A stretch of 64,000 nucleotides of DNA from Naegleria gruberi. Its lineage: Eukaryota. Both the position numbers and the translations under genes were made by a program. The stretch lies in assembly GCA_000004985.1 (NCBI GenBank), contig GG738853.1. One strand, 5' to 3'. The notes under the pieces are model-generated. The model was not told the DNA's origin and made no database searches. It saw nothing but the letters and a program-made list of their open reading frames with translations. Below, in pieces: positions 12 to 64,000 of this stretch. Each line of letters begins with the position of its first letter. The first letter of the stretch is position 1.

Positions 12-3000
12 TTGGAAATTGTGGCATGTGGTGCAGAACCTATCAGAGCAGAAACTATGGAAAGTTTCAGTACACTCTTCTCTGAATTTGGATTGAAAAA
101 ACAAGCCATGTATCCATGTTATGGATTGGCTGAGAGTACTCTCTATGTCACTGGTGTAAACTATATGAAAGGTTTCGACTTTACCACAATTGACAACAAG
201 AACCAATACATTATCAAGAATGGAACAGTCGAACAAACACAAACTCATCAAAAATTCGTTAATTGTGGTGTCAACTATGATGAAAATCAATCCATTAAAA
301 TTGTCGATCCAGAATCTTCTACAGAAATGGAGAATGGAAAGGTTGGTGAAGTTTGGTTGTCAAGTCCAAGTGTCGCTCAAGGTTATTGGGAGAAACCAGA
401 ACTTTCTCAAGAGGTTTTCCATGCACGAGTGGTTGGAGATGATAGGGAGTATCTCAGAAGTGGAGATTTGGGTTTCATGTTGAATGGAAACTTGTACATT
501 ACTGGTCGTCGTAAGGATGTCATTATTTTGAATGGTGTGAATTATTATCCTCAAGATGTAGAATTGGCATGTTCTAAATGTCATGCACAGATTAGAACTG
601 GGTGTGTGGTGGCTGTTAATATTGCTGATCGTGATGGACAGGATCGATTGGTGATAATTGCTGAAACTAAAGTTGTTTCGAATAGTGAGACACAAGTATT
701 GGAGAGTATTGTACAATCCATACGATCTGCAATTGCCGAATCGATGGGAATTCCAATGTATAATGCCCTATCGACCATCCTTCTCATGACTAAAGGAGGC
801 ATTCTCAAGACCACAAGTGGTAAACTGAGACGTCAACCAACTAAACAAGCATTTCTCAATAACAAACTTCCTCCAAAACTAATCGTTCACAGATGGGATC
901 AGGAGAAACTCTCAGATAGCGCTTCTCAACCAAGTACTCCAACAGAGATTGGATTGGCTAAAATTTGGAAAGAATTAACAGGAATTGATCCATCACTTTC
1001 GAATAACTTTTTCCTTTTGGGAGGAAGCTCTATGAGTTTGATTCAGCTAAAATCTAGAATCCAACATGTTTTCAATGTAATTATAAGTTTGACTGATTTG
1101 GTAATGTCGCCAACATTGCAATTGATGGCTAAATTGGTCGATCAACACAGCAATCAATGTAATACTAGCTCTGTACAAATTTCAAAGAGAGAAAGGACAA
1201 GTGACACTTTAGAATTATCAAACTCACAAACGAGATTCTGGTTCTTACATCACTTGATCGATAATCCTGCCATTCACAATGTTTTTGCAGGTGTTCGTTT
1301 GAAAGGTGACTTGGATAAACAAGCTTTAGAAAATTCCATTACCAAACTTGTAGAACGTCATGAAAGTTTACGTACAAGCTTTCAAGAAACAGAGATGTCA
1401 CCAATGCAACACATTCATTCTGAAATTTCTCTCAAATTAAATTCAATTAGTTTGAAACATCTCACTAGTGAAGAAGAAAAGAATTTGGAATTGAACAAGT
1501 TTCTCTTTGATGAGGTGAACGCACCATTCAACTTGAATGAAGCTCCTCTTCTCAGAGCTAACTTGATCGAAATGTCAGAGTGTGATCATGTTTTGGCCAT
1601 GACTTTCCATCATATCATAATCGATGGATGGTCCATGAATTTACTTGTTGAAGAGCTAGTTCAATACTATCTGGCTTTTAAGAATCATCAATCGCCAATT
1701 CTTCCACAAGTTCTTCAATATGGTGATTACACACTGTGGAGCAATCAACAACAATCAATGAATGAAACTCAATTAAAATATTGGGAAGAAAAACTCTCCA
1801 ATTTACCAGAATCTATCAAATTGCCAACAGAAGGCGAAAACTTATCCAAATCATTTGATGGATCTCATTTCTGGTTTGCAATCCCAGAAACTCTCGTTAA
1901 CTCCTTAAGAAAGATCGTTCAATCAAGAGGAGCCACACTCTACATGGGCATGTTAACTCTATTCAATATTTTACTGTACAGATATTCTGAACAGAATGAT
2001 ATTGCAATTGGAACACCTGTTGTGAATAGACAGCAACATGTTGAGTTGGAAGCACTGATTGGACTCTTGGTAAATACTCTGGTGATTAGAAATAATGTGA
2101 ATCCAGAGCATAATTTCATTGAAACTTTGATGGAAATCAAGTCAACTGTAATTGAAGCTTTTGAAAATCAAGATGTTCCTTTCCAGAAAGTTGTAGAAAG
2201 ATTGAAAGATTCACGTAATTCAATGGAGAATCCACTTTTTCAAGTCATGATGGCCATGCACAACCCACAACGGAAAATTGTCATGGATAATCTTGAAACT
2301 GAGCTAGTTAGAGTTGACAATGGATCATCCATGTTTAATTTAACACTTGAATTACAAGAAATAGAGGATGGAAGTTTACAATGTTGTTTCGAATATAGAA
2401 CTGATCTTTTCAAGAAGGAAACTATTGAAAGAATGGCTGGAAATCTTATTGAACTATTGAAATCAGCCACAACTGAATCGGATAACAAATCAATAAGCAA
2501 GTTGTCTTTCCTATCGAATTCTGAAGTTGAAACTTTGAATAATTTTGGAAATATCACCAATAATGATCTCAGTTCTTCAGTTTCGAATAGATTATTACAC
2601 GAACTCATTGAAGAGCAAGCTATCAAAACACCAGACAATACCGCCGTCTACTTCCAAGGTAAATCCTTCTCCTACCAACTTCTCGATCAAAAATCAGACC
2701 AATTAGCAAGGAGATTACGAGATATGAATCACTCCAAAAATCCCTTCATTGCCATTAGCATTGACAGAAGCTTTGAATTGATTGTGAGTTTAGTTGCCAT
2801 TCTCAAAGCTGGATTTGCCTATCTCCCTCTCGATCCAAGCTATCCACAAGAACGATTACTCTACGTGCTTGATGATTCACAAGCAGGTCTGTTAATAACT
2901 CAATCTAATTATTCTGAAAAATTCAAAGACTATCAAGGGAAAGTGTTGTCTATTGATAGATTCGTTTGGTCAGCAAGTAGCACTTCCACATCCTCCATTA

Positions 3001-4433
3001 GTATTGAGAAACCATTGACATCACCAAATGATTTGGCCTATCTCATTTACACTTCTGGCAGCACTGGAAATCCAAAAGGTGTCATGCTTTCTCACAGAAA
3101 TGTAAACAATACTCTCAATGGTCTAATTAAATTGTACGAAATGAAGCAAGATGACAAGTTTATTCATTACAGCTCCTATAGCTTTGATGTTTCATTGGAA
3201 GAGATTTTCCTTCCACTAATTACAGGTGCTTCGATTATTGTGGCCAATCCAAATATTCAATATCAGTTGGAGGAGCTTGTTGACTTGGTTGAGCAAACGA
3301 AGGCAACAATCATTGGTGTCACTCCAAGTTTGTGGCATGGTATAAGGTACCATGTTTTGAGGAATCCAAAATCAACTGAATCTTTAAGAATTGTCACTAT
3401 TGGAAATGAACCTGTTGATTCGAATGCAGTCAAAGAAATCCAACAAATGTGTCCCAATGCAACAGTATTCAATGTATGTGGAGGAACAGAGACTTGCATT
3501 GATTGGTCTCTCTTCAAGGTTCCAAAAGATTATGCACCTTTACAACAAGTAGTTCCTATTGGAAAACCAATTCCTGGTGTCAAATTGTATGTTTTGGATT
3601 CGAATAGAGAGTTAGTTCCAATTGGAGTACCTGGAGAACTCTACGTTGGAGGAAATGGTGTTGGAAATGGATATTGGAAAAATAGTGAGCTAACCTCCAA
3701 GAGCTTTATTGAAAATCCATTCCAAACTAAAGACGAAAAACAGAACAATGTTAATGGAAAACTATTCAAAACAGGAGATTTGGTTAAATGGTTACCTGAT
3801 GGAAATATGGTATTCATCTCCAGATTGGATCATCAAGTGAAATTAAGAGGATTCAGAGTTGAATTGGGTGAAATTCAAAATGTCATGAGGAAGAGTGGTC
3901 TCGTCAGGGAGGCAATTGTGATTCTCCAAGATGATGAGAATGTCAGTAACAAACAACTTGTTGGATACATTGTGTGTAATGAGGGAGAAACTAGACCGCA
4001 CTCAATCATCATACAGCTAGTCAATTCCTACTTGGAGAAACATCTGCCATACTATATGATTCCATCTCATATCATTTGCATTGAAAAAGTTCCAACAACC
4101 AATAATGGAAAATTGGATCGTAGAGCTTTACCAAGAGCAGTTGACCACCAGCAAACTAAAAGACTAGAAGAAAATATGGGAGAGGTCGATCCAGCTGATA
4201 TTCCAGAGAGTCATTGCAAGCTAAGACAAATTTGGTCCAAAGTACTCAAGATGAAGGAGGATTGCATTGGGTTGAGTGATAACTTTTTTGCAATTGGTGG
4301 AAATTCCATTCTCATTGCCCAATTGAGAAGCATGGTTCGTACAGAGTTGGGTATTCAGTTAGAGTTGAAGACTTTCTTTGAAAAATTAACAATCCAATCT
4401 ATGGCTACCCACATTGAAACTGTTAGCCAATAA
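12..4433 (+). CDS. Nonribosomal peptide synthetase-like megasynthase, 3' part only (5' end lies outside the window). Domain order: [C-terminal half of a FAAL-type adenylation domain]-T-C-A-T.
   Basis: Uninterrupted 1473-codon frame running from the window edge to a TAA stop at 4431-4433. FAAL/A-domain C-half motifs: PCYGLAEST and ITGRRKDVIILNGVNYYPQDVE. Carrier domain 1: LGGSSMSL (GGxS, around nt 1025-1045). Condensation domain: HHIIIDGWS (HHxxxDG, around nt 1609-1635). Second adenylation domain: LAYLIYTSGSTGNPKGV (A3, around nt 3040-3085), NVCGGTE, GELYVGGNGVGNGY, FKTGDL...RLDHQVKLRGFRVELGEIQ (A8) and PTTNNGKLDR (A10). Carrier domain 2: IGGNSILIAQL (around nt 4290-4315). No thioesterase or reductase domain lies between carrier domain 2 and the stop. 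Confidence 0.85.
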   Translation: MEIVACGAEPIRAETMESFSTLFSEFGLKKQAMYPCYGLAESTLYVTGVNYMKGFDFTTIDNKNQYIIKNGTVEQTQTHQKFVNCGVNYDENQSIKIVDPESSTEMENGKVGEVWLSSPSVAQGYWEKPELSQEVFHARVVGDDREYLRSGDLGFMLNGNLYITGRRKDVIILNGVNYYPQDVELACSKCHAQIRTGCVVAVNIADRDGQDRLVIIAETKVVSNSETQVLESIVQSIRSAIAESMGIPMYNALSTILLMTKGGILKTTSGKLRRQPTKQAFLNNKLPPKLIVHRWDQEKLSDSASQPSTPTEIGLAKIWKELTGIDPSLSNNFFLLGGSSMSLIQLKSRIQHVFNVIISLTDLVMSPTLQLMAKLVDQHSNQCNTSSVQISKRERTSDTLELSNSQTRFWFLHHLIDNPAIHNVFAGVRLKGDLDKQALENSITKLVERHESLRTSFQETEMSPMQHIHSEISLKLNSISLKHLTSEEEKNLELNKFLFDEVNAPFNLNEAPLLRANLIEMSECDHVLAMTFHHIIIDGWSMNLLVEELVQYYLAFKNHQSPILPQVLQYGDYTLWSNQQQSMNETQLKYWEEKLSNLPESIKLPTEGENLSKSFDGSHFWFAIPETLVNSLRKIVQSRGATLYMGMLTLFNILLYRYSEQNDIAIGTPVVNRQQHVELEALIGLLVNTLVIRNNVNPEHNFIETLMEIKSTVIEAFENQDVPFQKVVERLKDSRNSMENPLFQVMMAMHNPQRKIVMDNLETELVRVDNGSSMFNLTLELQEIEDGSLQCCFEYRTDLFKKETIERMAGNLIELLKSATTESDNKSISKLSFLSNSEVETLNNFGNITNNDLSSSVSNRLLHELIEEQAIKTPDNTAVYFQGKSFSYQLLDQKSDQLARRLRDMNHSKNPFIAISIDRSFELIVSLVAILKAGFAYLPLDPSYPQERLLYVLDDSQAGLLITQSNYSEKFKDYQGKVLSIDRFVWSASSTSTSSISIEKPLTSPNDLAYLIYTSGSTGNPKGVMLSHRNVNNTLNGLIKLYEMKQDDKFIHYSSYSFDVSLEEIFLPLITGASIIVANPNIQYQLEELVDLVEQTKATIIGVTPSLWHGIRYHVLRNPKSTESLRIVTIGNEPVDSNAVKEIQQMCPNATVFNVCGGTETCIDWSLFKVPKDYAPLQQVVPIGKPIPGVKLYVLDSNRELVPIGVPGELYVGGNGVGNGYWKNSELTSKSFIENPFQTKDEKQNNVNGKLFKTGDLVKWLPDGNMVFISRLDHQVKLRGFRVELGEIQNVMRKSGLVREAIVILQDDENVSNKQLVGYIVCNEGETRPHSIIIQLVNSYLEKHLPYYMIPSHIICIEKVPTTNNGKLDRRALPRAVDHQQTKRLEENMGEVDPADIPESHCKLRQIWSKVLKMKEDCIGLSDNFFAIGGNSILIAQLRSMVRTELGIQLELKTFFEKLTIQSMATHIETVSQ

Positions 4434-4558: not shown

Positions 4559-4631
4559 CTCCCCCTGGTGGGCTCGAACCACCGACCTGCAGATTAACAG
4601 TCTGACGCTCTACCGACTGAGCTAAGGGGGA
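4559..4631 (-). tRNA. tRNA-Asn (anticodon GUU)
   Basis: The reverse complement folds as a 73-nt cloverleaf. Acceptor stem TCCCCCT/AGGGGGA; D-arm GCTC-AGTCGGTA-GAGC; anticodon loop CTGTTAA, giving GTT; T-arm GGTGG-TTCGAGC-CCACC. The downstream flank has T-runs, as expected for a Pol III terminator. One mismatch at the outer pair of the anticodon stem. Confidence 0.8.
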
Positions 4632-4702
4632 TACATTAATAAAAGAAAATATTCCTTATTCACAATTAAGGCTTGTTTTTCTTGTTAAGATTTTGGCAAT
4701 CA

Positions 4703-4791
4703 CCAGTACAAAAGGCGACTGAGGGAATTGAACCCTCGACCCTCAGTTATCTCAGCATTTCTGCCTACAAGACTGATGCACTGCCACTGTG
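4703..4791 (-). tRNA. Intron-containing tRNA, most likely tRNA-Thr (anticodon UGU), with a ~17-nt intron after position 37
   Basis: The reverse complement gives acceptor GGCGGCT/AGTCGCC (one G-U pair); D-arm GCAC-AGTGGCA-GTGC; anticodon stem TCAGT...ACTGA, which pairs perfectly only if 17 nt (GGCAGAAATGCTGAGAT) are removed; loop CTTGTAA (anticodon TGT); T-arm GAGGG-TTCAATT-CCCTC. The isotype call depends on exactly where the intron is placed. Confidence 0.6.
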
Positions 4792-4873
4792 CTAAGCCGC
4801 CTTACACTTTATCATCAAATTTAAAATTTTCGAAAAACATGTGCAAGGACAAAGAATAATTCATTTGCAGAGT

Positions 4874-15943: not shown

Positions 15944-16016
15944 GCGGCAGTAGATCAGTGGTTAGATCGTCCGCCTCACACGCGGAAGGTCGCGGGTTCG
16001 AACCCCGTTTGCCGTA
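15944..16016 (+). tRNA. tRNA-Val (anticodon CAC)
   Basis: 73 nt. Acceptor GCGGCAG/TTGCCGT; D-arm GATC-AGTGGTTA-GATC; anticodon stem-loop TCCGC-CTCACAC-GCGGA; variable loop AGGTC; T-arm GCGGG-TTCGAAC-CCCGT. Close to the eukaryotic tRNA-Val-CAC consensus as I recall it. A T-run lies downstream. Confidence 0.8.
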
Positions 16017-16405: not shown

Positions 16406-16478
16406 TACGCAAGGCGGGGTTTGAACCCGCGACCTTCCGCGTGTGAGGCGGACGATCTAACCACTGATCTACTTGCGC
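16406..16478 (-). tRNA. tRNA-Val (anticodon CAC), inverted relative to the copy at 15944
   Basis: The reverse complement gives GCGCAAG-TA-GATCAGTGGTTAGATC-G-TCCGCCTCACACGCGGA-AGGTC-GCGGGTTCAAACCCCGC-CTTGCGT-A. It is identical to the first copy in the D and anticodon arms. It differs in acceptor pairs 4-69 and 5-68, where the changes are compensatory, and at one T-loop position. Confidence 0.8.
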
Positions 16479-18140: not shown

Positions 18141-18229
18141 GGGTGGTTAGCTCAGCGGTAGAGCACCGGATTGCAAAGATATTTGCAGCAGACATCCGAT
18201 GGTCACGTGTTCGATCCACGTACCACCCT
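18141..18229 (+). tRNA. Intron-containing tRNA-Cys (anticodon GCA)
   Basis: Acceptor GGGTGGT/ACCACCC; D-arm GCTC-AGCGGTA-GAGC; anticodon stem CCGGA, loop TTGCAA(A), anticodon GCA. A ~17-nt insertion (GATATTTGCAGCAGACA) sits before the 3' stem strand TCCGA. The intron contains TGC, complementary to the anticodon. T-arm ACGTG-TTCGATC-CACGT. A downstream T-run (TTTTGTTTTTT) follows. Confidence 0.65.
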
Positions 18230-20092: not shown

Positions 20093-20841
20093 AACTCCTT
20101 CTATTAAATTATCGATGAGATGACTATTTTACATTCCATTCATTCGTTGTTATTGTTGTTTATCAAATTTCAGAAGAATGATTAGTGAAAACCTACATGA
20201 ATATTAAACCATCACTTAATCGACCATATAACTCATTTGAAGTTTCCAAATTATCAACACTAATTGGTTGCCACTCACCAATCGTTTCCTCCACTCGTTG
20301 TGGCATCTCTCTCAATCTCTTACTCATAACGGAATTAATAAACATGATAAAACACCTCTTCTCTCTCTTTGAAATCGTCGAGACCGAACCTGTTGCACTC
20401 ACCGATTTAATTAGTGGCTCGACACTCCTGAGTGAGGCTCCTCTTAACTTGATAGCCTCTTCACCTTCGAGCGTTGTTGTTTGTTGCTGCGAATTGTCGT
20501 TATTAAGGTTGCGAGATGACAACATTTTTTCTACAAGTAATAATTTTTTTAAAAATTCCTTAAATCCTTAACGTCTCCCTTCAACAGCCCAAAGATTTGG
20601 CGGGAGAAATCTTGCTCAATAATGCACTGTAAAATAATGATCCCCTTAATGGTTCTATTCGAAAGGAAAATTAGTTTATTTAAGTATTTAAAAGTTTTCA
20701 AGTTTTTTATAAAATGTTAAATTTTTGTATCTTTTAAAAAGAATTCATACTTTCAGTTTCAAAATACGAAATGAAGATAAACTTACTTAAAGAACATCAA
20801 GAAATTACAATTTATTTAATGAAAAATCAAAATGTAAAAAA

Positions 20842-22071
20842 ATGCAAAGACAACAACAGAGAGCATCCTCATCACAAAATGTTTCTCAACATCAGCAATC
20901 TCTTGAACAACAACAAAATTCTCAAGAAGAGGATGATTTAGAATCGGTCAGATTATCACAAGCTGACGAATTATCGCCACCATCATCACCCGAACCTGAA
21001 ACTCCTTTTCAAAATCGAAGAAGGAGAGAACGAGAACGTTCTTTATCATCTAATGATGAAGAAGAACAATCAGTAGTAGATGAACAAGACAATACTTCAG
21101 TAACTCCCAACATAAATGCTCATCAAAGTCCCTATGTAACATCAAATGCTCGGAGGAGAGATTTAATGTACTCTAATCGATACTCTCCACAAACACCAGG
21201 ACAAAAGAAGAAGGCTTTGGAAAATAAATTGAAAAGGGATTTTCCAGAAGACTTTAGAGAAATGAATAGAAGAGAGGAGGAACGAAAAAAGAAACGAGAA
21301 TTTTGTCCAGATAGCTGTGGCTCGATTGCTGGATTTCAATTTACAAATCCTGGTTTACTCATGTTGGGACAGTCAGCACTACATAGATCGGGAGCAATCA
21401 GTTCATTGAGTACGATTGATCCTGCCTTCCTGGCACTGCATAGTCCCGAGAAGAGAATTGAAATTTTGAATAGTGTGGTTGCAAAACCTCCTCCACTTCC
21501 TCCAAAGGAACCAAAAACAGAGGCCGATATACTGAGGGAGTTTCTTAAAAAGAAGAGAACTGAATTGGCAAAACAGGACAAGGTTCAACCTAGATTGATC
21601 ATGGCAGATGATACTATCGATCTGATTGTCATGTGTAGAGAATCAATGTGTATGGGACATGAACTAGTTGAGAAAATTAAGGAAAAACATCAACAGACGA
21701 TTGTTAATTATGTACGAGCATTTGTGAAAAAGAAACATCAACAGCATGAAACTGCAGATGATAATGTAAATAGCAACCATTTAGATTTGAATGTCAATTC
21801 CTCTCACTTGAATGAAACGAGTCAATCAGCATGTTTGGAAAATAGTAACAACAATAACACATTGAATGAGATTTCCCAACTGAATCATTCTATTGCATCT
21901 TCAACATCTTCTCAAACTGTTGTTACAGAGCCAGTTACTCCTGCCAAACAAAGTGTTTCCTTAAAAACTCCAACAGCAAGTAATTCAAAGAAAACACCAG
22001 TTCAAAAAGAGGTTATCGAACTTGATTCTAGTGATTCTGATGATGATGATGGAATTATCCAAATTGATTAA
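20842..22071 (+). CDS. Hypothetical low-complexity (Ser/Gln/Glu-rich, acidic C-terminus) protein
   Basis: ATG at 20842, 409 codons, no intron detected. It has KR-rich patches, so it may be nuclear. No domain recognised. Confidence 0.45.
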   Translation: MQRQQQRASSSQNVSQHQQSLEQQQNSQEEDDLESVRLSQADELSPPSSPEPETPFQNRRRRERERSLSSNDEEEQSVVDEQDNTSVTPNINAHQSPYVTSNARRRDLMYSNRYSPQTPGQKKKALENKLKRDFPEDFREMNRREEERKKKREFCPDSCGSIAGFQFTNPGLLMLGQSALHRSGAISSLSTIDPAFLALHSPEKRIEILNSVVAKPPPLPPKEPKTEADILREFLKKKRTELAKQDKVQPRLIMADDTIDLIVMCRESMCMGHELVEKIKEKHQQTIVNYVRAFVKKKHQQHETADDNVNSNHLDLNVNSSHLNETSQSACLENSNNNNTLNEISQLNHSIASSTSSQTVVTEPVTPAKQSVSLKTPTASNSKKTPVQKEVIELDSSDSDDDDGIIQID

Positions 22072-22205
22072 CAGAATCAATATTTTATTAAATAATAACA
22101 ATCTGATATCTTCTTAATAAGAACACCTCAATCATCAAATATTACTGATAACACCCTTCACATGTCAGCCATCACCTGTTGATCTTCCAAACCATCATAA
22201 AAAAA

Positions 22206-25094
22206 ATGTTTAAAAAAGTCTTTGGAAATAATGGCAGTAAAAAACCAGAGCCAAACAACAATGTCATTGTTGAATCAGCCTCCTCCGACCAACCACCTCC
22301 ATCATCACCAACCACTCCCTCTGACGAACAACCAAGAAAACGAACACCCGTTGCGCCACAAATTCAAGAAGTGAGCGCCAAAGTAAATAATCAATATGTT
22401 CCCACCAAAAAAAACACCGAAGAACAGTACAGTGAGAGTGATAAGGGAGTCTCTGAGAGAAATAAACAAGCATCGGATGTGGTTCGTGTTGAGAGAAATC
22501 AGGGTGATGAAGCGTTGAAGGCTGTTAGAGGATTGTCTGATGGTTTGGAAGATCAACAGGATGATGATTTGGATGGAAAGAAGAAGAAGAAAAAGAAGAA
22601 GGATAAAGAAAGTATTGTTGTTAATACAACAGCTGGAAAGGGAAAGAAATCAACAATTTTGGGTGATTTGATGGGAATTGCTGCTAGAAAGGGATATCTG
22701 AGTAAGAGAGGTGGTTCTATCAAGACTTGGCACAAGAGATTTTTCATTGTTGTTGGTCATCGTCTCTATTATTACAAAGACGATAGTTCAAAGAATGAAC
22801 CATTGGGTTCTGTTAAATGTAAAGGACCAGAAAGTGTTCAACCTGTTGCAGACACATCTCGTCCTAACTGTTTTAGAATTATCTCTGAAGAGAGAACATT
22901 ATACTGTCAAGCTGAAAATGAAAATGACATGAATTCTTGGATGAATTTTTTGAAGGAACACACTTCAAAATTGAATTTACGTAAAGTGAAAGAACTTTCC
23001 AATCTTCAAGGATACATGACATTGTTGGATAATCAAACAAAGAAAAAGAAACGTGATGTTTATTGTTTGTGTATGGATGGTAAATTTTACATTTTGAATA
23101 ATTTTGAGGATGTATTACCGGATAGAATTGTAGAATTGGCTGGTGCCAGTGTAAGCAAAGTTAGTATTTCAGGTACATCAACAAATAATTTATTGGAAAC
23201 ACCTGCAACTCCTTCAAGTCCTAGAAAGATCAACAATACTGAAATTCAAGATTTTGCATTCCAAATCACAGAAAGTTTGCAAGCCGGATACATCCCAGAA
23301 GATGTTGCACCAGAAAAGGAAAAGTCTGGTAGATCTTCACGTTCCAGCTCTACTTTCCGTCAATCTAAAATGTTCAGTAGAAAATCAATGAAGGTCAATG
23401 ATAGCAGTCAATCAGGAAGTGGACAAGGCGATACTACAGCTCGTTTGAGAAAGGGAACTCAATTTTTCCAAAACTTGATCACTAGTGTTGAAGGACTCAA
23501 TCAAGTTACACTAACATCAATTGATCCATTTTTGGCTGATGCTGAAATTTGGTGTGAAATGGTTCGTCACGAATCTGAATTGGCCTCAACCAGTTGGTAT
23601 GTTCGTAACTCTCAAATGCGTGGTTGGATCAAGATTTTAATGAACAACGATGAAGTCAACAAGGCCATTCTTCAAGATAAGAAGAAACCAGAATCATTAT
23701 ATTGGATTGAAAGATATGCCTGTCTTGTTCGTGGTACCTTGTTCTACTTTTCCGAAGAGAATTCTCCAACTCCAGATGGTAGTATTGTCCTCACTACAGG
23801 TTCTCGTCTCGTAACCTCAGCTGTTCGTGAATTGAACTGTCCATATGCATTCAAGATTTCTTCACTTTCATCCAATTTTTATGTTTGCGTAAATTCGGAT
23901 GATGAAAAGGATTGTTGGGTTGAAGAATTAAAGGAAGCAACCTACTCTCAAGCCAATCTCGACTATAACAAGTATGGTTGGTTGACCAAGCAAGGTGGTT
24001 CCTACAAGTCTTGGAAGGAACGTTTCTGTATCTTGAAGGGTACCAATTTGTACTATTTCTCTGATCCAAATGACTCTGAACCTAAGGGTAAAGTCAATCT
24101 TAAGGGTCAAATGATTCGTCACCTTACTCCAGTCGAGGCCTACAATGAAGTTCAAAAGGATAACGTTATCAAGATTTACACTAGTCAACGTACTTGGTAT
24201 TTCTTTGCAGATACCATGCAAGAAGCTGTCGAATGGTCTATTGTATTGAGAAAGGCAGCCCTTCTCTATCGTGGTAGAACTTGGATTGTTGATGACAAGT
24301 TGGATGGCATGGATGCAAAGAATTCCTTGAGATGTAAGAGTATTTCCCAAGCTGTTGCCAAAGCAGCAGAATTGGATCGTATCATTGTCTATTCTGGTGT
24401 ATATTCTGAAACTGTAGTTGTAAACAAATCTGTAATTATAGAATGTGTAGGTGATGTGGTATTAAAGAAGGATTCTGGAGCTCCACTCATTGTGGATTGT
24501 ATTGGTGCCGTAAAGGTCACTGGTATGGAATTAAGACAAGAAGGAGCTCCTAAAGAGCTCAGAGGTGACAAACATGCAGCTGAAGTTAAACGTGGTAACA
24601 TTATGTTTGAACATTGTCAAATTACCAGCAGAGATGGTAATGGTGTTGTCATTACCGAAGAAGGTGGTGTCACTATGAGCAAGTGTCGTGTATTCGACTG
24701 CAACCACTATGGCGTTTGGTTGAACGGAAGAGCTAGTGCCATTTTGGAAAATGTGGAAATTTGTGGATGTCAATGGGATGGTGTCATGCTCATGGCTAAT
24801 ACTGACTGTATCATTCGTCAATCTGATATTTTCAACAATTCTTACAATGGTATTGCCGTCTCTTCAAAGGGTCGTCTCAATGTAGAAAATTGTAGAATAA
24901 GTGGAAACTTGTGGGATGGTATCTCTATCAATACTGACAAGGGTGCTGCCAGATTATTCGATAACTTTATTTTTGACAACCAAGGATTTGGTATTTATTA
25001 TGCTAAAGATAATGTCAGTGGTATCAACGTTGACAATGAAGTGTATTCCAATAAGAAGGGTCAAATCTACACTCTCAGTGGTAGACTTGAATAA
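22206..25094 (+). CDS. Multi-PH-domain protein with a C-terminal right-handed parallel beta-helix (PbH1-repeat) region
   Basis: ATG at 22206; the track ORF opens earlier at a TTG. Four PH-like modules: KGYLSKRGGSIKTWHKRFFIV...NSWMNFLK; LQGYMTLLDNQTKKKKRDVYCL...; LYWIERYACLVRGTLFYFSEE...CWVEELK; and KYGWLTKQGGSYKSWKERFCILKGTNLYYF...AVEWSIVLRKA. The C-terminal ~250 aa have periodic N..GI/W.DG beta-helix repeats (CQITSRDGNGVVI..., NHYGVWLNG..., QWDGVMLMAN..., SYNGIAVSS..., LWDGISINTD..., QGFGIYYA). Confidence 0.65.
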   Translation: MFKKVFGNNGSKKPEPNNNVIVESASSDQPPPSSPTTPSDEQPRKRTPVAPQIQEVSAKVNNQYVPTKKNTEEQYSESDKGVSERNKQASDVVRVERNQGDEALKAVRGLSDGLEDQQDDDLDGKKKKKKKKDKESIVVNTTAGKGKKSTILGDLMGIAARKGYLSKRGGSIKTWHKRFFIVVGHRLYYYKDDSSKNEPLGSVKCKGPESVQPVADTSRPNCFRIISEERTLYCQAENENDMNSWMNFLKEHTSKLNLRKVKELSNLQGYMTLLDNQTKKKKRDVYCLCMDGKFYILNNFEDVLPDRIVELAGASVSKVSISGTSTNNLLETPATPSSPRKINNTEIQDFAFQITESLQAGYIPEDVAPEKEKSGRSSRSSSTFRQSKMFSRKSMKVNDSSQSGSGQGDTTARLRKGTQFFQNLITSVEGLNQVTLTSIDPFLADAEIWCEMVRHESELASTSWYVRNSQMRGWIKILMNNDEVNKAILQDKKKPESLYWIERYACLVRGTLFYFSEENSPTPDGSIVLTTGSRLVTSAVRELNCPYAFKISSLSSNFYVCVNSDDEKDCWVEELKEATYSQANLDYNKYGWLTKQGGSYKSWKERFCILKGTNLYYFSDPNDSEPKGKVNLKGQMIRHLTPVEAYNEVQKDNVIKIYTSQRTWYFFADTMQEAVEWSIVLRKAALLYRGRTWIVDDKLDGMDAKNSLRCKSISQAVAKAAELDRIIVYSGVYSETVVVNKSVIIECVGDVVLKKDSGAPLIVDCIGAVKVTGMELRQEGAPKELRGDKHAAEVKRGNIMFEHCQITSRDGNGVVITEEGGVTMSKCRVFDCNHYGVWLNGRASAILENVEICGCQWDGVMLMANTDCIIRQSDIFNNSYNGIAVSSKGRLNVENCRISGNLWDGISINTDKGAARLFDNFIFDNQGFGIYYAKDNVSGINVDNEVYSNKKGQIYTLSGRLE

Positions 25095-59697: not shown

Positions 59698-59747
59698 NNN
59701 NNNNNNNNNNNNNNNNNNNNNNNNNNNNNNNNNNNNNNNNNNNNNNN
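59698..59747. other. Assembly gap (50 N)
   Basis: Run of N characters. Confidence 1.
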
Positions 59748-60391
59748 AGTCAACATTTACATTCCCATGGTACCATTTCTGATTACTAGGACATGAAATT
59801 AAATTCTATATCATTATAGATCATCTACATTATGATGGTAAAGTTTCAATAGGTGGTCCTTTTTCCAGATTTCCACATATTCATACAAGTTCATACAAGT
59901 TGACCCTATGATGGTTGAGGGAAGAAATCTTTAAATATGAAAGTTAAAATAAATTTGATATTCGATGTTTACTCATCAAATGGAACATTTTCATGTCAGG
60001 ATTCAATATGTTTTCATGAGAAACTCAAAAGTTATTGTTGACCTATTGTACCTCACAACTTCCCTTTTCACTTGATACTTTTATACCTACAGACATGAAC
60101 TTTTGAAATTTTATATGAAAGTGATTATGAATGTTGTTAATGATGATATAGACTATATAATCTCATTAAAGGATTTTGAAACTATCATCCTTCCTATGGT
60201 TTCATTTTACAATTTTTAATCTGACATTATTTACAAGGTTGATATTTTATAAATTGAAAAACTAAATATACCACATTGTTCTACTCATCATTTACAATCG
60301 AATGATATAAAATTTAATGATATTTGAATAAGTTTATATATTTGGGCTAGGGTTTGAACGTTGGGTTTAGAAGAATTCTATTTTTAGAATT

Positions 60392-60808
60392 GGGTTTGGG
60401 TTTGGGTTTGGGTTTGGGTTTGGGTTTGGGTTTGGGTTTGGGTTTGGGTTTGGGTTTGGGTTTGGGTTTGGGTTTGGGTTTGGGTTTGGGTTTGGGTTTG
60501 GGTTTGGGTTTGGGTTTGGGTTTGGGTTTGGGTTTGGGTTTGGGTTTGGGTTTGGGTTTGGGTTTGGGTTTGGGTTTGGGTTTGGGTTTGGGTTTGGGTT
60601 TGGGTTTGGGTTTGGGTTTGGGTTTGGGTTTGGGTTTGGGTTTGGGTTTGGGTTTGGGTTTGGGTTTGGGTTTGGGTTTGGGTTTGGGTTTGGGTTTGGG
60701 TTTGGGTTTGGGTTTGGGTTTGGGTTTGGGTTTGGGTTTGGGTTTGGGTTTGGGTTTGGGTTTGGGTTTGGGTTTGGGTTTGGGTTTGGGTTTGGGTTTG
60801 GGTTTGGG
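60392..60808 (+). repeat. (GGGTTT)n telomere-like hexamer array, about 70 units. It is preceded by degenerate variants and truncated by a 50-N gap at 60809-60858.
   Basis: Perfect 6-nt periodicity can be read directly. The lead-in at 60340-60391 carries degenerate copies (GGGCTAGGGTTTGAACGTTGGGTTTAG...). Confidence 0.95.
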
Positions 60809-60984
60809 NNNNNNNNNNNNNNNNNNNNNNNNNNNNNNNNNNNNNNNNNNNNNNNNNNTCTCATTGATACATGTCTAATTATCATGTTTTATGATATATA
60901 ATTGAAATAATTGAAATTTATCATATATATAGGGAGATAACCAATTAGGATGAGAGAAGGGGAAGTTACGCTCACAATTTACCA

Positions 60985-62986
60985 NNNNNNNNNNNNNNNN
61001 NNNNNNNNNNNNNNNNNNNNNNNNNNNNNNNNNNNNNNNNNNNNNNNNNNNNNNNNNNNNNNNNNNNNNNNNNNNNNNNNNNNNNNNNNNNNNNNNNNNN
61101 NNNNNNNNNNNNNNNNNNNNNNNNNNNNNNNNNNNNNNNNNNNNNNNNNNNNNNNNNNNNNNNNNNNNNNNNNNNNNNNNNNNNNNNNNNNNNNNNNNNN
61201 NNNNNNNNNNNNNNNNNNNNNNNNNNNNNNNNNNNNNNNNNNNNNNNNNNNNNNNNNNNNNNNNNNNNNNNNNNNNNNNNNNNNNNNNNNNNNNNNNNNN
61301 NNNNNNNNNNNNNNNNNNNNNNNNNNNNNNNNNNNNNNNNNNNNNNNNNNNNNNNNNNNNNNNNNNNNNNNNNNNNNNNNNNNNNNNNNNNNNNNNNNNN
61401 NNNNNNNNNNNNNNNNNNNNNNNNNNNNNNNNNNNNNNNNNNNNNNNNNNNNNNNNNNNNNNNNNNNNNNNNNNNNNNNNNNNNNNNNNNNNNNNNNNNN
61501 NNNNNNNNNNNNNNNNNNNNNNNNNNNNNNNNNNNNNNNNNNNNNNNNNNNNNNNNNNNNNNNNNNNNNNNNNNNNNNNNNNNNNNNNNNNNNNNNNNNN
61601 NNNNNNNNNNNNNNNNNNNNNNNNNNNNNNNNNNNNNNNNNNNNNNNNNNNNNNNNNNNNNNNNNNNNNNNNNNNNNNNNNNNNNNNNNNNNNNNNNNNN
61701 NNNNNNNNNNNNNNNNNNNNNNNNNNNNNNNNNNNNNNNNNNNNNNNNNNNNNNNNNNNNNNNNNNNNNNNNNNNNNNNNNNNNNNNNNNNNNNNNNNNN
61801 NNNNNNNNNNNNNNNNNNNNNNNNNNNNNNNNNNNNNNNNNNNNNNNNNNNNNNNNNNNNNNNNNNNNNNNNNNNNNNNNNNNNNNNNNNNNNNNNNNNN
61901 NNNNNNNNNNNNNNNNNNNNNNNNNNNNNNNNNNNNNNNNNNNNNNNNNNNNNNNNNNNNNNNNNNNNNNNNNNNNNNNNNNNNNNNNNNNNNNNNNNNN
62001 NNNNNNNNNNNNNNNNNNNNNNNNNNNNNNNNNNNNNNNNNNNNNNNNNNNNNNNNNNNNNNNNNNNNNNNNNNNNNNNNNNNNNNNNNNNNNNNNNNNN
62101 NNNNNNNNNNNNNNNNNNNNNNNNNNNNNNNNNNNNNNNNNNNNNNNNNNNNNNNNNNNNNNNNNNNNNNNNNNNNNNNNNNNNNNNNNNNNNNNNNNNN
62201 NNNNNNNNNNNNNNNNNNNNNNNNNNNNNNNNNNNNNNNNNNNNNNNNNNNNNNNNNNNNNNNNNNNNNNNNNNNNNNNNNNNNNNNNNNNNNNNNNNNN
62301 NNNNNNNNNNNNNNNNNNNNNNNNNNNNNNNNNNNNNNNNNNNNNNNNNNNNNNNNNNNNNNNNNNNNNNNNNNNNNNNNNNNNNNNNNNNNNNNNNNNN
62401 NNNNNNNNNNNNNNNNNNNNNNNNNNNNNNNNNNNNNNNNNNNNNNNNNNNNNNNNNNNNNNNNNNNNNNNNNNNNNNNNNNNNNNNNNNNNNNNNNNNN
62501 NNNNNNNNNNNNNNNNNNNNNNNNNNNNNNNNNNNNNNNNNNNNNNNNNNNNNNNNNNNNNNNNNNNNNNNNNNNNNNNNNNNNNNNNNNNNNNNNNNNN
62601 NNNNNNNNNNNNNNNNNNNNNNNNNNNNNNNNNNNNNNNNNNNNNNNNNNNNNNNNNNNNNNNNNNNNNNNNNNNNNNNNNNNNNNNNNNNNNNNNNNNN
62701 NNNNNNNNNNNNNNNNNNNNNNNNNNNNNNNNNNNNNNNNNNNNNNNNNNNNNNNNNNNNNNNNNNNNNNNNNNNNNNNNNNNNNNNNNNNNNNNNNNNN
62801 NNNNNNNNNNNNNNNNNNNNNNNNNNNNNNNNNNNNNNNNNNNNNNNNNNNNNNNNNNNNNNNNNNNNNNNNNNNNNNNNNNNNNNNNNNNNNNNNNNNN
62901 NNNNNNNNNNNNNNNNNNNNNNNNNNNNNNNNNNNNNNNNNNNNNNNNNNNNNNNNNNNNNNNNNNNNNNNNNNNNNNNNNNNNNN
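60985..62986. other. Assembly gap (2002 N)
   Basis: Run of N characters. The six-frame ORFs crossing it are artefacts. Confidence 1.
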
Positions 62987-63572
62987 CTGACATGTTGAAT
63001 GATTTCAAATTGTCATGAAACTGATACAGTGGTGTTTATTCACCATTAGTAAGGTACTGTATCAATTTCATAATGATCTGTATAGTAGATGTCATTGTCA
63101 CATCCCTGTAGGTATCAAGTGCATCAGCCATGTACCATGTATGATATGGATGAATGTCAAAGTGATATTAATGTATTTAATTATCATGTACAGATGTATT
63201 GGAAGTGCATTGAAGTGGAACAGAATTCTCTCTTCAATGTTAGAATAGGTCAGTTGACAAGTTGAATAGTTAATTTCCTGAAATGATACCAAAGTATTTG
63301 AAATTGATATATATTGTTATTAACATGATATATAAGGTGATATATTGATTTGAATTGAATTTGAAATGTTTTCATTGATATTCTAATTGTCTAATCTATT
63401 ATATGAAATTAACTTATATAAATCATTATAATGATGTAATATTATGTTATATTGTGATTATATATTCAATTTGGAGTATATTGATATATAATATATTGAT
63501 TTATAATGAGTATTTATTGAGATAATCAATTAAGATGAATAAAAGTCAAAATATTGGGTCTGGCTTTGGCGT

Positions 63573-64000
63573 GGGTTTGGGTTTGGGTTTGGGTTTGGGT
63601 TTGGGTTTGGGTTTGGGTTTGGGTTTGGGTTTGGGTTTGGGTTTGGGTTTGGGTTTGGGTTTGGGTTTGGGTTTGGGTTTGGGTTTGGGTTTGGGTTTGG
63701 GTTTGGGTTTGGGTTTGGGTTTGGGTTTGGGTTTGGGTTTGGGTTTGGGTTTGGGTTTGGGTTTGGGTTTGGGTTTGGGTTTGGGTTTGGGTTTGGGTTT
63801 GGGTTTGGGTTTGGGTTTGGGTTTGGGTTTGGGTTTGGGTTTGGGTTTGGGTTTGGGTTTGGGTTTGGGTTTGGGTTTGGGTTTGGGTTTGGGTTTGGGT
63901 TTGGGTTTGGGTTTGGGTTTGGGTTTGGGTTTGGGTTTGGGTTTGGGTTTGGGTTTGGGTTTGGGTTTGGGTTTGGGTTTGGGTTTGGGTTTGGGTTTGA
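63573..64000 (+). repeat. (GGGTTT)n telomere-like array, about 71 units, running to the window end with the G-rich strand 5'->3' toward the terminus
   Basis: Perfect hexamer repeat from 63573 to the last base. A degenerate lead-in GGGTCTGGCTTTGGCGTGGGTTT lies at 63556-63572. The repeat has the same orientation as the block at 60392. Confidence 0.9.

Follow-up and report, generated by a model that had tools for sequence, protein, structure and literature searches.

Introduction

Modules of nonribosomal peptide synthetases (NRPSs) that are initiated by a fatty-acyl-AMP ligase (FAAL) are a well-known kind of enzyme, and several described systems can be compared with the one analyzed here, an NRPS gene at the 5′ edge of a 64,000-nucleotide stretch of Naegleria gruberi DNA (contig GG738853.1 of assembly GCA_000004985.1; hereafter the window). 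Its protein, P0001 (1809 aa; XP_002680530.1, EFC47786.1, UniProt D2V677), resembles PvdL (PDB 9lcq and related) in having an acyl-adenylating first domain and a carrier, followed by condensation (C), adenylation (A), and thiolation (T) domains. The PvdL structure aligns with P0001 residues 747-1807 (E 1.6e-125), its C domain ranking moderately (E 4.7e-34). In PvdL, further modules follow, and the protein is part of a multi-protein siderophore line. SwrW, the serrawettin W1 synthetase, is a single-module lipo-amino-acid NRPS of C-A-T-thioesterase (TE) order, and has in common with the Naegleria enzyme the single module and a product, predicted in our case, that is not a peptide but an amino acid bearing an acyl chain. 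However, SwrW uses a starter C domain fed by the acyl carrier protein (ACP) of fatty acid synthase and releases its product through a cis TE, whereas in Naegleria the C domain does not belong to the starter type and a TE is absent. In the isonitrile lipopeptide systems of Mycobacterium and Streptomyces, a FadD10-type acyl-ACP ligase and an ACP serve an NRPS with C-A-T-reductase (R) domains that acts on lysine. FAAL-type activation, ACP carriage, and condensation onto a basic amino acid by one C-A-T module would be common to these systems and to Naegleria, but the former are built from separate proteins, include an isonitrile-forming enzyme, and use reductive release, none of which is seen in Naegleria, and we treat the likeness as a lead only.

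The gene itself is already on record. A preliminary description, made from the letters of the window, had taken the host to be an amoeba, which is correct. GenBank names the protein a "non-ribosomal peptide synthetase," and a 2026 survey of FAALs (PMC12820801) devotes one sentence to their occurrence in two species of Naegleria, for which it suggests horizontal transfer. In the literature searched, we found no paper on this protein, its accessions, architecture, or product, and no characterized NRPS from Naegleria or another heterolobosean.

We propose that the locus is a nuclear gene for a five-domain, single-module lipo-initiation NRPS, which was acquired from a bacterium by the ancestor of N. 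gruberi and Naegleria lovaniensis, has been kept functional, and acts as a stand-alone enzyme with release of its product in trans; taken as a whole, we consider this account probable. By analogy with the known workings of these domain families, the FAAL would adenylate a free fatty acid and load it onto the first peptidyl carrier protein domain (PCP1), the A domain would adenylate one alpha-amino acid and load it onto the second (PCP2), and the C domain would form the amide, giving an N-fatty-acyl-aminoacyl thioester on PCP2. The N-acyl amino acid would then leave in trans, through a free-standing hydrolase, through water, or through attack by the substrate's own side chain.

Gene Extent and Domain Architecture

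We confirmed an open reading frame (ORF) of 1473 codons at 12..4433 (+), with no internal stop (chance P ~3e-48 for a frame of this length at this base composition). The frame is open already from base 3, where ttt agc agt ttg encodes F S S L, residues 334-337 of P0001, so that the coding sequence extends past the 5′ edge of the window. The translation of this frame is 100% identical to P0001 over its full length. Upstream of the window lie 336 residues of P0001, the N terminus of which matches a FAAL profile of 578 positions, starting at position 3 of the profile; these residues complete the FAAL domain and add nothing else, and there is therefore no polyketide synthase (PKS) part. Thus, the preliminary description correctly placed the 5′ part of the gene outside the window, but not the PKS portion that it considered possible there.

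Across full P0001, Pfam recognizes five domains, FAAL, PCP, C, A, and PCP, and no others (Table 1), and the gene contains no introns. This is the order that had been read directly from the window (the C-terminal half of a FAAL, then PCP-C-A-PCP, then the stop codon), the strings PCYGLAEST and ITGRRKD...YYPQDVE quoted in that reading are both found in the translation, and the profile search proposed as its check recovers Condensation, AMP-binding, and PP-binding domains. A motif scan found A3, A5, A7, A8, and A10 in both adenylating domains of P0001.

Table 1. Positions in the window of the synthetase domains and of the tRNA genes that follow
Feature	Position	Strand	Basis
FAAL domain, C-terminal ~290 residues	1..872	+	NCBIfam FAAL models top-ranked; FAAL structures nearest
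Carrier domain 1 (ACP/PCP for acyl chain)	936..1148, borders approximate	+	Pfam PP-binding
Condensation domain	1203..2537	+	PF00668, residues 398-842, E 2.8e-99
Amino-acid adenylation domain	2610..4112	+	PF00501 + PF13193; TIGR01733
Carrier domain 2 (PCP)	4218..4415	+	PF00550, residues 1403-1468
Stop codon TAA directly after PCP2	4431..4433	+	ORF reading
tRNA-Asn(GUU)	4559-4631	-	ARAGORN, Rfam RF00005
tRNA-Thr(UGU), 89-91 nt, probable intron	4712-4802	-	ARAGORN, Rfam RF00005

The first domain is closer to FAALs than to acyl-CoA ligases. NCBIfam FAAL models score it at 325-359 bits, compared with 148 bits for the best classical CoA-ligase model (PRK07768, labelled a CoA ligase too, scores 295), and its closest matches in the PDB are all FAALs (7r7e, 3kxw, FadD32, FadD23, and 3pbk). 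The part within the window contains A5 (YGLAEST), a FAAL-type insertion, A8 (ITGRRKD), and A10 (SGKLRR), and Pfam places a DIP2-like AMP C-subdomain at residues 169-287 of the 1473-aa translation and a second AMP-binding stretch in its N-terminal part. FAALs are set apart by an insertion in their N-terminal subdomain, about 20 residues long. The spacing from A5 to A6 is 75 aa in the N. gruberi FAAL and 84 aa in that of N. lovaniensis, against 51 and 49 aa, respectively, in the amino-acid A domain, and, as judged by spacing, the resulting 24-35 extra residues fit the FAAL-specific insertion.

The carrier domain that directly follows the FAAL in cis would fit transfer of the acyl group to a carrier protein, not to CoA. 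PP-binding is matched by two stretches of the translation (E 1.2e-27). Both carriers hold the serine of a GGxS motif, the predicted site of phosphopantetheine attachment: in PCP1 the motif is LGGSSM, with the serine at nt ~1029-1031 (Ser676 of P0001; GGSS at residue 673 in the motif scan), and in PCP2 it is IGGNS, with the serine at nt 4305-4307 (GGNS at P0001 residue 1765). The C domain between them is complete, the PF00668 match covering profile positions 3-455 of 456, and has the catalytic HHIIIDG at nt 1608-1628 (P0001 residue 869, motif scan). Its nearest C domains in the PDB are of the elongation type (Txo1, Txo2, and TycC6), whereas the starter C domain of RzmA is matched only at 1e-12; this likeness fits a donor delivered on a cis carrier.

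Amino-Acid Adenylation Domain and Pocket Code

The A domain scores 460 bits with the NCBIfam amino-acid adenylation model TIGR01733, over the cutoff of 317 bits, and in the 1473-aa translation Pfam recognizes AMP-binding at residues 867-1222 (E 1.1e-95) and AMP-binding_C at residues 1287-1367. Motifs A3 (YTSGSTGNPKG), A4 (FDVS, nt ~3183), A7 (FKTGD), and A10 (NGKLDR) were identified. A5 is atypical: it reads NVCGGTE (nt 3471-3491), identically in both Naegleria species, as against the near-universal NxYGPTE, and across 118 relatives the Tyr is present in 113 and the Pro in 104. The A5 Tyr usually makes a stacking contact with the adenine of ATP.

We read the pocket code by aligning the A4-A5 segment to a GrsA reference segment, which yields its canonical code, DAWTIAAIC, at the expected positions; as controls, other hits gave the canonical codes for Ser, Gly, Orn, Gln, Glu, and Val. 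The specificity code, which the preliminary description had proposed to predict, is DVEGTGVIDK (Stachelhaus code), identical in N. gruberi and N. lovaniensis, and DVEGSGMVDK in P0010, the nearest bacterial relative. Neither code occurs in the literature searched, and of 1014 A domains from relatives, the closest agree with DVEGTGVIDK at 6 of 9 code positions. Asp235 and Lys517 indicate that the substrate is probably an alpha-amino acid. Because the pocket also holds Glu239 and Asp331, a pair present in 8 of the 1014 A domains (3 of these being the Naegleria/P0010 clade), a cationic side chain of the Orn, Lys, or Arg type may be suggested, with low confidence. The canonical Orn code, DVGEIGSID, has five positions in common with the Naegleria code.

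Bacterial Ancestry and Retention of the Gene

In a homolog search, we considered the 120 best database hits. Two are the Naegleria proteins P0001 and its N. lovaniensis ortholog P0002, with no further Naegleria NRPS protein among the 120, and the named proteins among the other 118 are all bacterial, with 27-43% identity. In a neighbor-joining tree built from 918 columns of the C-A region in 118 sequences, P0001 and P0002 form a group with bootstrap 100/100, as does this pair together with P0010. P0010 is the nearest relative in each domain that it retains (44% identity in PCP1, 44% in C, and 48% in A). It resembles the Naegleria proteins in its FAAL-PCP-C-A-PCP order and in the near-same code (DVEGSGMVD), and differs from them in that it continues beyond PCP2 with a thioester reductase (PF07993) and then a thioesterase (PF00975), in its canonical A5 (NMYGPTE), and in the FAAL, the 5′ part of which is missing or disrupted. 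The R ending of the isonitrile-system NRPS resembles that of P0010.

P0010 is encoded on a 10.5 kb Logan contig (SRR12417983; 33% GC) with GerE, response-regulator, and histidine-kinase genes, neighbors from which we conclude that it is bacterial, from an uncultured organism. The only named match of the response regulator is to a metagenome-assembled genome labelled "Gammaproteobacteria bacterium," at 31% identity, a weak link. The FAAL frame of P0010 extends ~45 codons upstream of the called start (contig 1-544) and is then broken by stops, with an unrelated 113-aa ORF on the opposite strand, and the gene is therefore 5′-truncated, disrupted, or mis-assembled on this contig.

No P0010-like sequence was found in 185,579 GTDB species genomes, the P0010 scan of GTDB being empty, nor in JGI metagenomes. 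Scans with the A4-A5 alignment returned 64 loci in GTDB and 71 loci in JGI metagenomes, all at ≤35% identity, and therefore no further member of the Naegleria/P0010 clade and no donor lineage. A HMMER search of 1.84 billion representatives with C-A-PCP2 gave ≤37% identity among the matches listed; its ranking is led by giant multimodular NRPSs through summed scores and holds no information on the clade.

With all close relatives outside Naegleria being bacterial and the gene being intronless, the N. gruberi scaffold might be thought to be contaminated with bacterial DNA or chimeric. However, the gene adjoins eukaryotic genes and tRNA genes that probably contain introns, on sequence that the first assembly gap interrupts only at 59.7 kb. 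A pair of tRNA genes on the opposite strand bounds its 3′ end (Table 1; 4559..4802), which is chromosomal context and not part of the synthetase, and the following 55 kb hold GTPase, 2′-5′ RNA ligase, disulphide oxidoreductase, C2, CH-PH, FHA, Forkhead, and kinase genes. GC content at third codon positions is 0.32 in the synthetase, inside the range of nine neighboring ORFs (0.25-0.36). Moreover, the ortholog is present in an independent assembly of N. lovaniensis, and no bacterial genome or metagenome searched comes closer than ~35% identity in the A4-A5 segment. Given the ordinary eukaryotic genes and the tRNA genes with probable introns in the flanks, contamination is excluded for practical purposes. 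Nested among bacterial sequences, integrated in eukaryotic DNA, host-like in composition, and present in two species, the gene is best described as a putative horizontal acquisition from bacteria by a eukaryote.

P0002 is a protein of 1837 aa with 55% identity to P0001, encoded without introns, with the same five domains, and likewise ends on a PCP. Its gene is flanked by a DnaJ/ZUO1 gene on one side and a protein kinase gene on the other, its start ~500 bp from the divergently transcribed DnaJ gene, and we found no flank synteny between the N. lovaniensis locus and the N. gruberi window. In a codon alignment of the two genes, synonymous divergence (pS) is 0.75 and saturated, whereas nonsynonymous divergence (pN) is 0.29, and the gene is therefore under purifying selection; all domains are constrained, including PCP2. 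The A domain is the most conserved part between the species (65% identity), despite its atypical A5. From this constraint, we judge that both species have kept the gene functional.

These data also bear on the idea that the gene is an inert leftover of partial gene transfer, cut off from its release or elongation partners and functionless today. That the nearest bacterial relative has R and TE domains while the Naegleria proteins do not, that no partner was found nearby, and that the conserved A5 Tyr has been lost would all agree with such a leftover, but uninterrupted ORFs of 1809 and 1837 codons in two species at saturated synonymous divergence, the excess of pS over pN, and the intactness of all catalytic motifs, together with the conservation of the A domain, do not. 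We regard an inert leftover as very improbable, and the selection signal brings it close to refuted.

At the N. lovaniensis locus, a small 2-oxoglutarate (2OG)-Fe(II) oxygenase gene (20751-21559 of the locus) and a gene for an ABC transporter are found 5-8 kb downstream of the synthetase gene. Neither has a counterpart that we could see in the N. gruberi window, and both are probably unrelated to the synthetase.

Carboxy-Terminal End and Product Release

Neither P0001 nor P0002 contains a TE, R, or terminal C domain when the full proteins are searched with Pfam, which bears out, for both Naegleria proteins, the earlier observation that a cis TE or R domain is absent. In its A, C, and carrier domains the protein agrees with a modular (type I) NRPS; a cis release domain is typical of a terminal module but does not define membership of this family. 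The stop codon falls 41 residues past the second phosphopantetheine serine in N. gruberi and 44 residues past it in N. lovaniensis. In N. gruberi, a tRNA gene on the opposite strand begins 125 bp past the stop, too close for an additional exon to fit.

Two uncharacterized bacterial proteins, P0116 (Trichocoleus sp. FACHB-262) and P0089, share the five domains and their order, are of similar size (1765-1800 aa), and have 34-36% identity to the Naegleria query over 99-100% of its length; none has a cis release domain. Their pocket codes differ from that of Naegleria (DVENMGAVT and DILQLGMVW). Directly downstream of P0116, in a siderophore-like cluster, come a PKS gene and additional NRPS genes, and directly downstream of P0089 comes a C-A-PCP-TE gene, whereas the Naegleria gene has no such neighbors. 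In six bacterial TE-less look-alikes, P0116 and P0089 included, 61-78 residues follow the last serine, compared with the 41-44 residues of the Naegleria proteins, which end at the edge of the PCP fold. The additional 20-35 residues in bacteria are charged and look like docking elements. Thus, the hallmarks of a first subunit, a docking tail and an adjoining gene for a downstream module, are both lacking in the Naegleria proteins.

This comparison bears directly on whether the gene encodes the first subunit of a split assembly line, in which PCP2 would pass its intermediate to a partner, a PKS or NRPS with its gene at a distant place in the genome, this partner would supply release, and the product would be a larger lipopeptide or lipopeptide-polyketide hybrid. 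In bacteria, the same TE-less architecture is always encountered as a first subunit, as the genes downstream of P0116 and P0089 illustrate, and the genes of a eukaryotic pathway need not cluster. On the other hand, the Naegleria proteins are without the 20-35 aa C-terminal tails of bacterial first subunits, and no PKS, NRPS, or other biosynthetic neighbor was found in the 60 kb downstream of the N. gruberi gene or in the 10 kb flanking the N. lovaniensis gene on each side. Nor is there another Naegleria protein among the top 120 NRPS hits, although a distant partner would be compatible with all these points. A homolog search for a trans partner with the R-TE part of P0010 gave no Naegleria protein among its matches. 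The best match, P0121, was rejected as a partner: it is an unrelated A-T-R protein from a trans-AT PKS cluster, with a different pocket. We consider a split line somewhat unlikely, and hand-off through a docked assembly line of the bacterial style less likely than trans release.

Since a cis TE, R, or terminal C domain is missing, as is a docking tail, release in trans from a stand-alone module would be the most likely route. The preliminary description offered trans release or completion by a downstream partner; these are still the right two options, now narrowed, with trans release favored. Were the substrate Orn- or Lys-like, its side chain could bring about self-release. A further possibility is that the module is self-sufficient without any release domain, either forming an N-acyl lactam through attack by the cationic side chain or transferring its product directly to a cellular acceptor, and so makes a lineage-specific lipid signal or defence compound from a substrate that no A domain has yet been assigned; this we consider unlikely. 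The pathogen N. fowleri may lack such a compound. Only two Naegleria species, N. gruberi and N. lovaniensis, are represented in our protein search, which included no search aimed at N. fowleri, and apparently also in the FAAL survey (PMC12820801). If the gene were truly absent from N. fowleri, it would mark a difference between non-pathogenic and pathogenic lineages.

Several points weigh against a stand-alone, lipo-initiating enzyme with release in trans. The FAAL scores are below the curated NCBIfam naming cutoffs (359 versus 775 bits; cutoffs 600-975). With the A5 Tyr missing, adenylation could be altered. The amino-acid class is read from only two acidic pocket residues, with the closest codes agreeing at 6 of 9 positions. 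The sister protein P0010 has R-TE, so the ancestral logic may be reductive release, which would have needed replacement in Naegleria. Finally, a pangenome study of Naegleria (PMC9928731) reports that the genus has 16 polyketide synthases, of which 5 are core, and a partner may therefore be encoded elsewhere in the genome.

The peculiarities of the system are modest: a eukaryotic host, a release domain and a docking tail that are both lost or absent, and an atypical A5 together with a pocket code that has no assigned substrate. As the gene consists of one module, is intronless, and is under clear selection in two species, heterologous expression should be practical. A study of the enzyme would put a name to a lipid metabolite of Naegleria, identify the substrate behind an orphan A-domain code, and show how a eukaryote uses an assembly-line fragment without release domain or docking tail. 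Its value lies in a tractable entry to the lipid natural products of Naegleria and not in a new principle.

Genomic Surroundings

Beyond the synthetase, the window holds further tRNA genes. The intron of the tRNA-Thr in Table 1 is inferred from its length, compared with 73 nt for the other tRNAs of the window, and from its sequence. A tRNA reading as Cys(GCA) at 18141-18229 (+), found by Rfam and missed by ARAGORN in bacterial mode, also has a probable intron, and in both genes the intron sits just 3′ of the anticodon. Two convergent tRNA-Val(CAC) genes, at 15944-16016 (+) and 16406-16478 (-), lie ~390 bp apart. A 971-aa ORF (22179-25094, +) encodes three PH domains and a C-terminal right-handed beta-helix (NosD-like) region, a pairing that is unusual for a eukaryotic signalling protein.

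Toward the 3′ end, runs of N occupy 59698-59747, 60809-60858, and 60985-62986. The block at 59698-64000, which appears as 17% GC and strongly GC-skewed, was rejected as a biological feature, being an artefact of these runs, and the long "ORFs" on both strands at 60950-63008 are translations of N. Perfect or near-perfect (TTGGGT)n arrays of ~70 and 75 copies flank the gaps (60390-60808 and 63554-63999). Since these arrays look telomere-like, a chromosome end or a scaffold join may be located ~56 kb from the synthetase gene.

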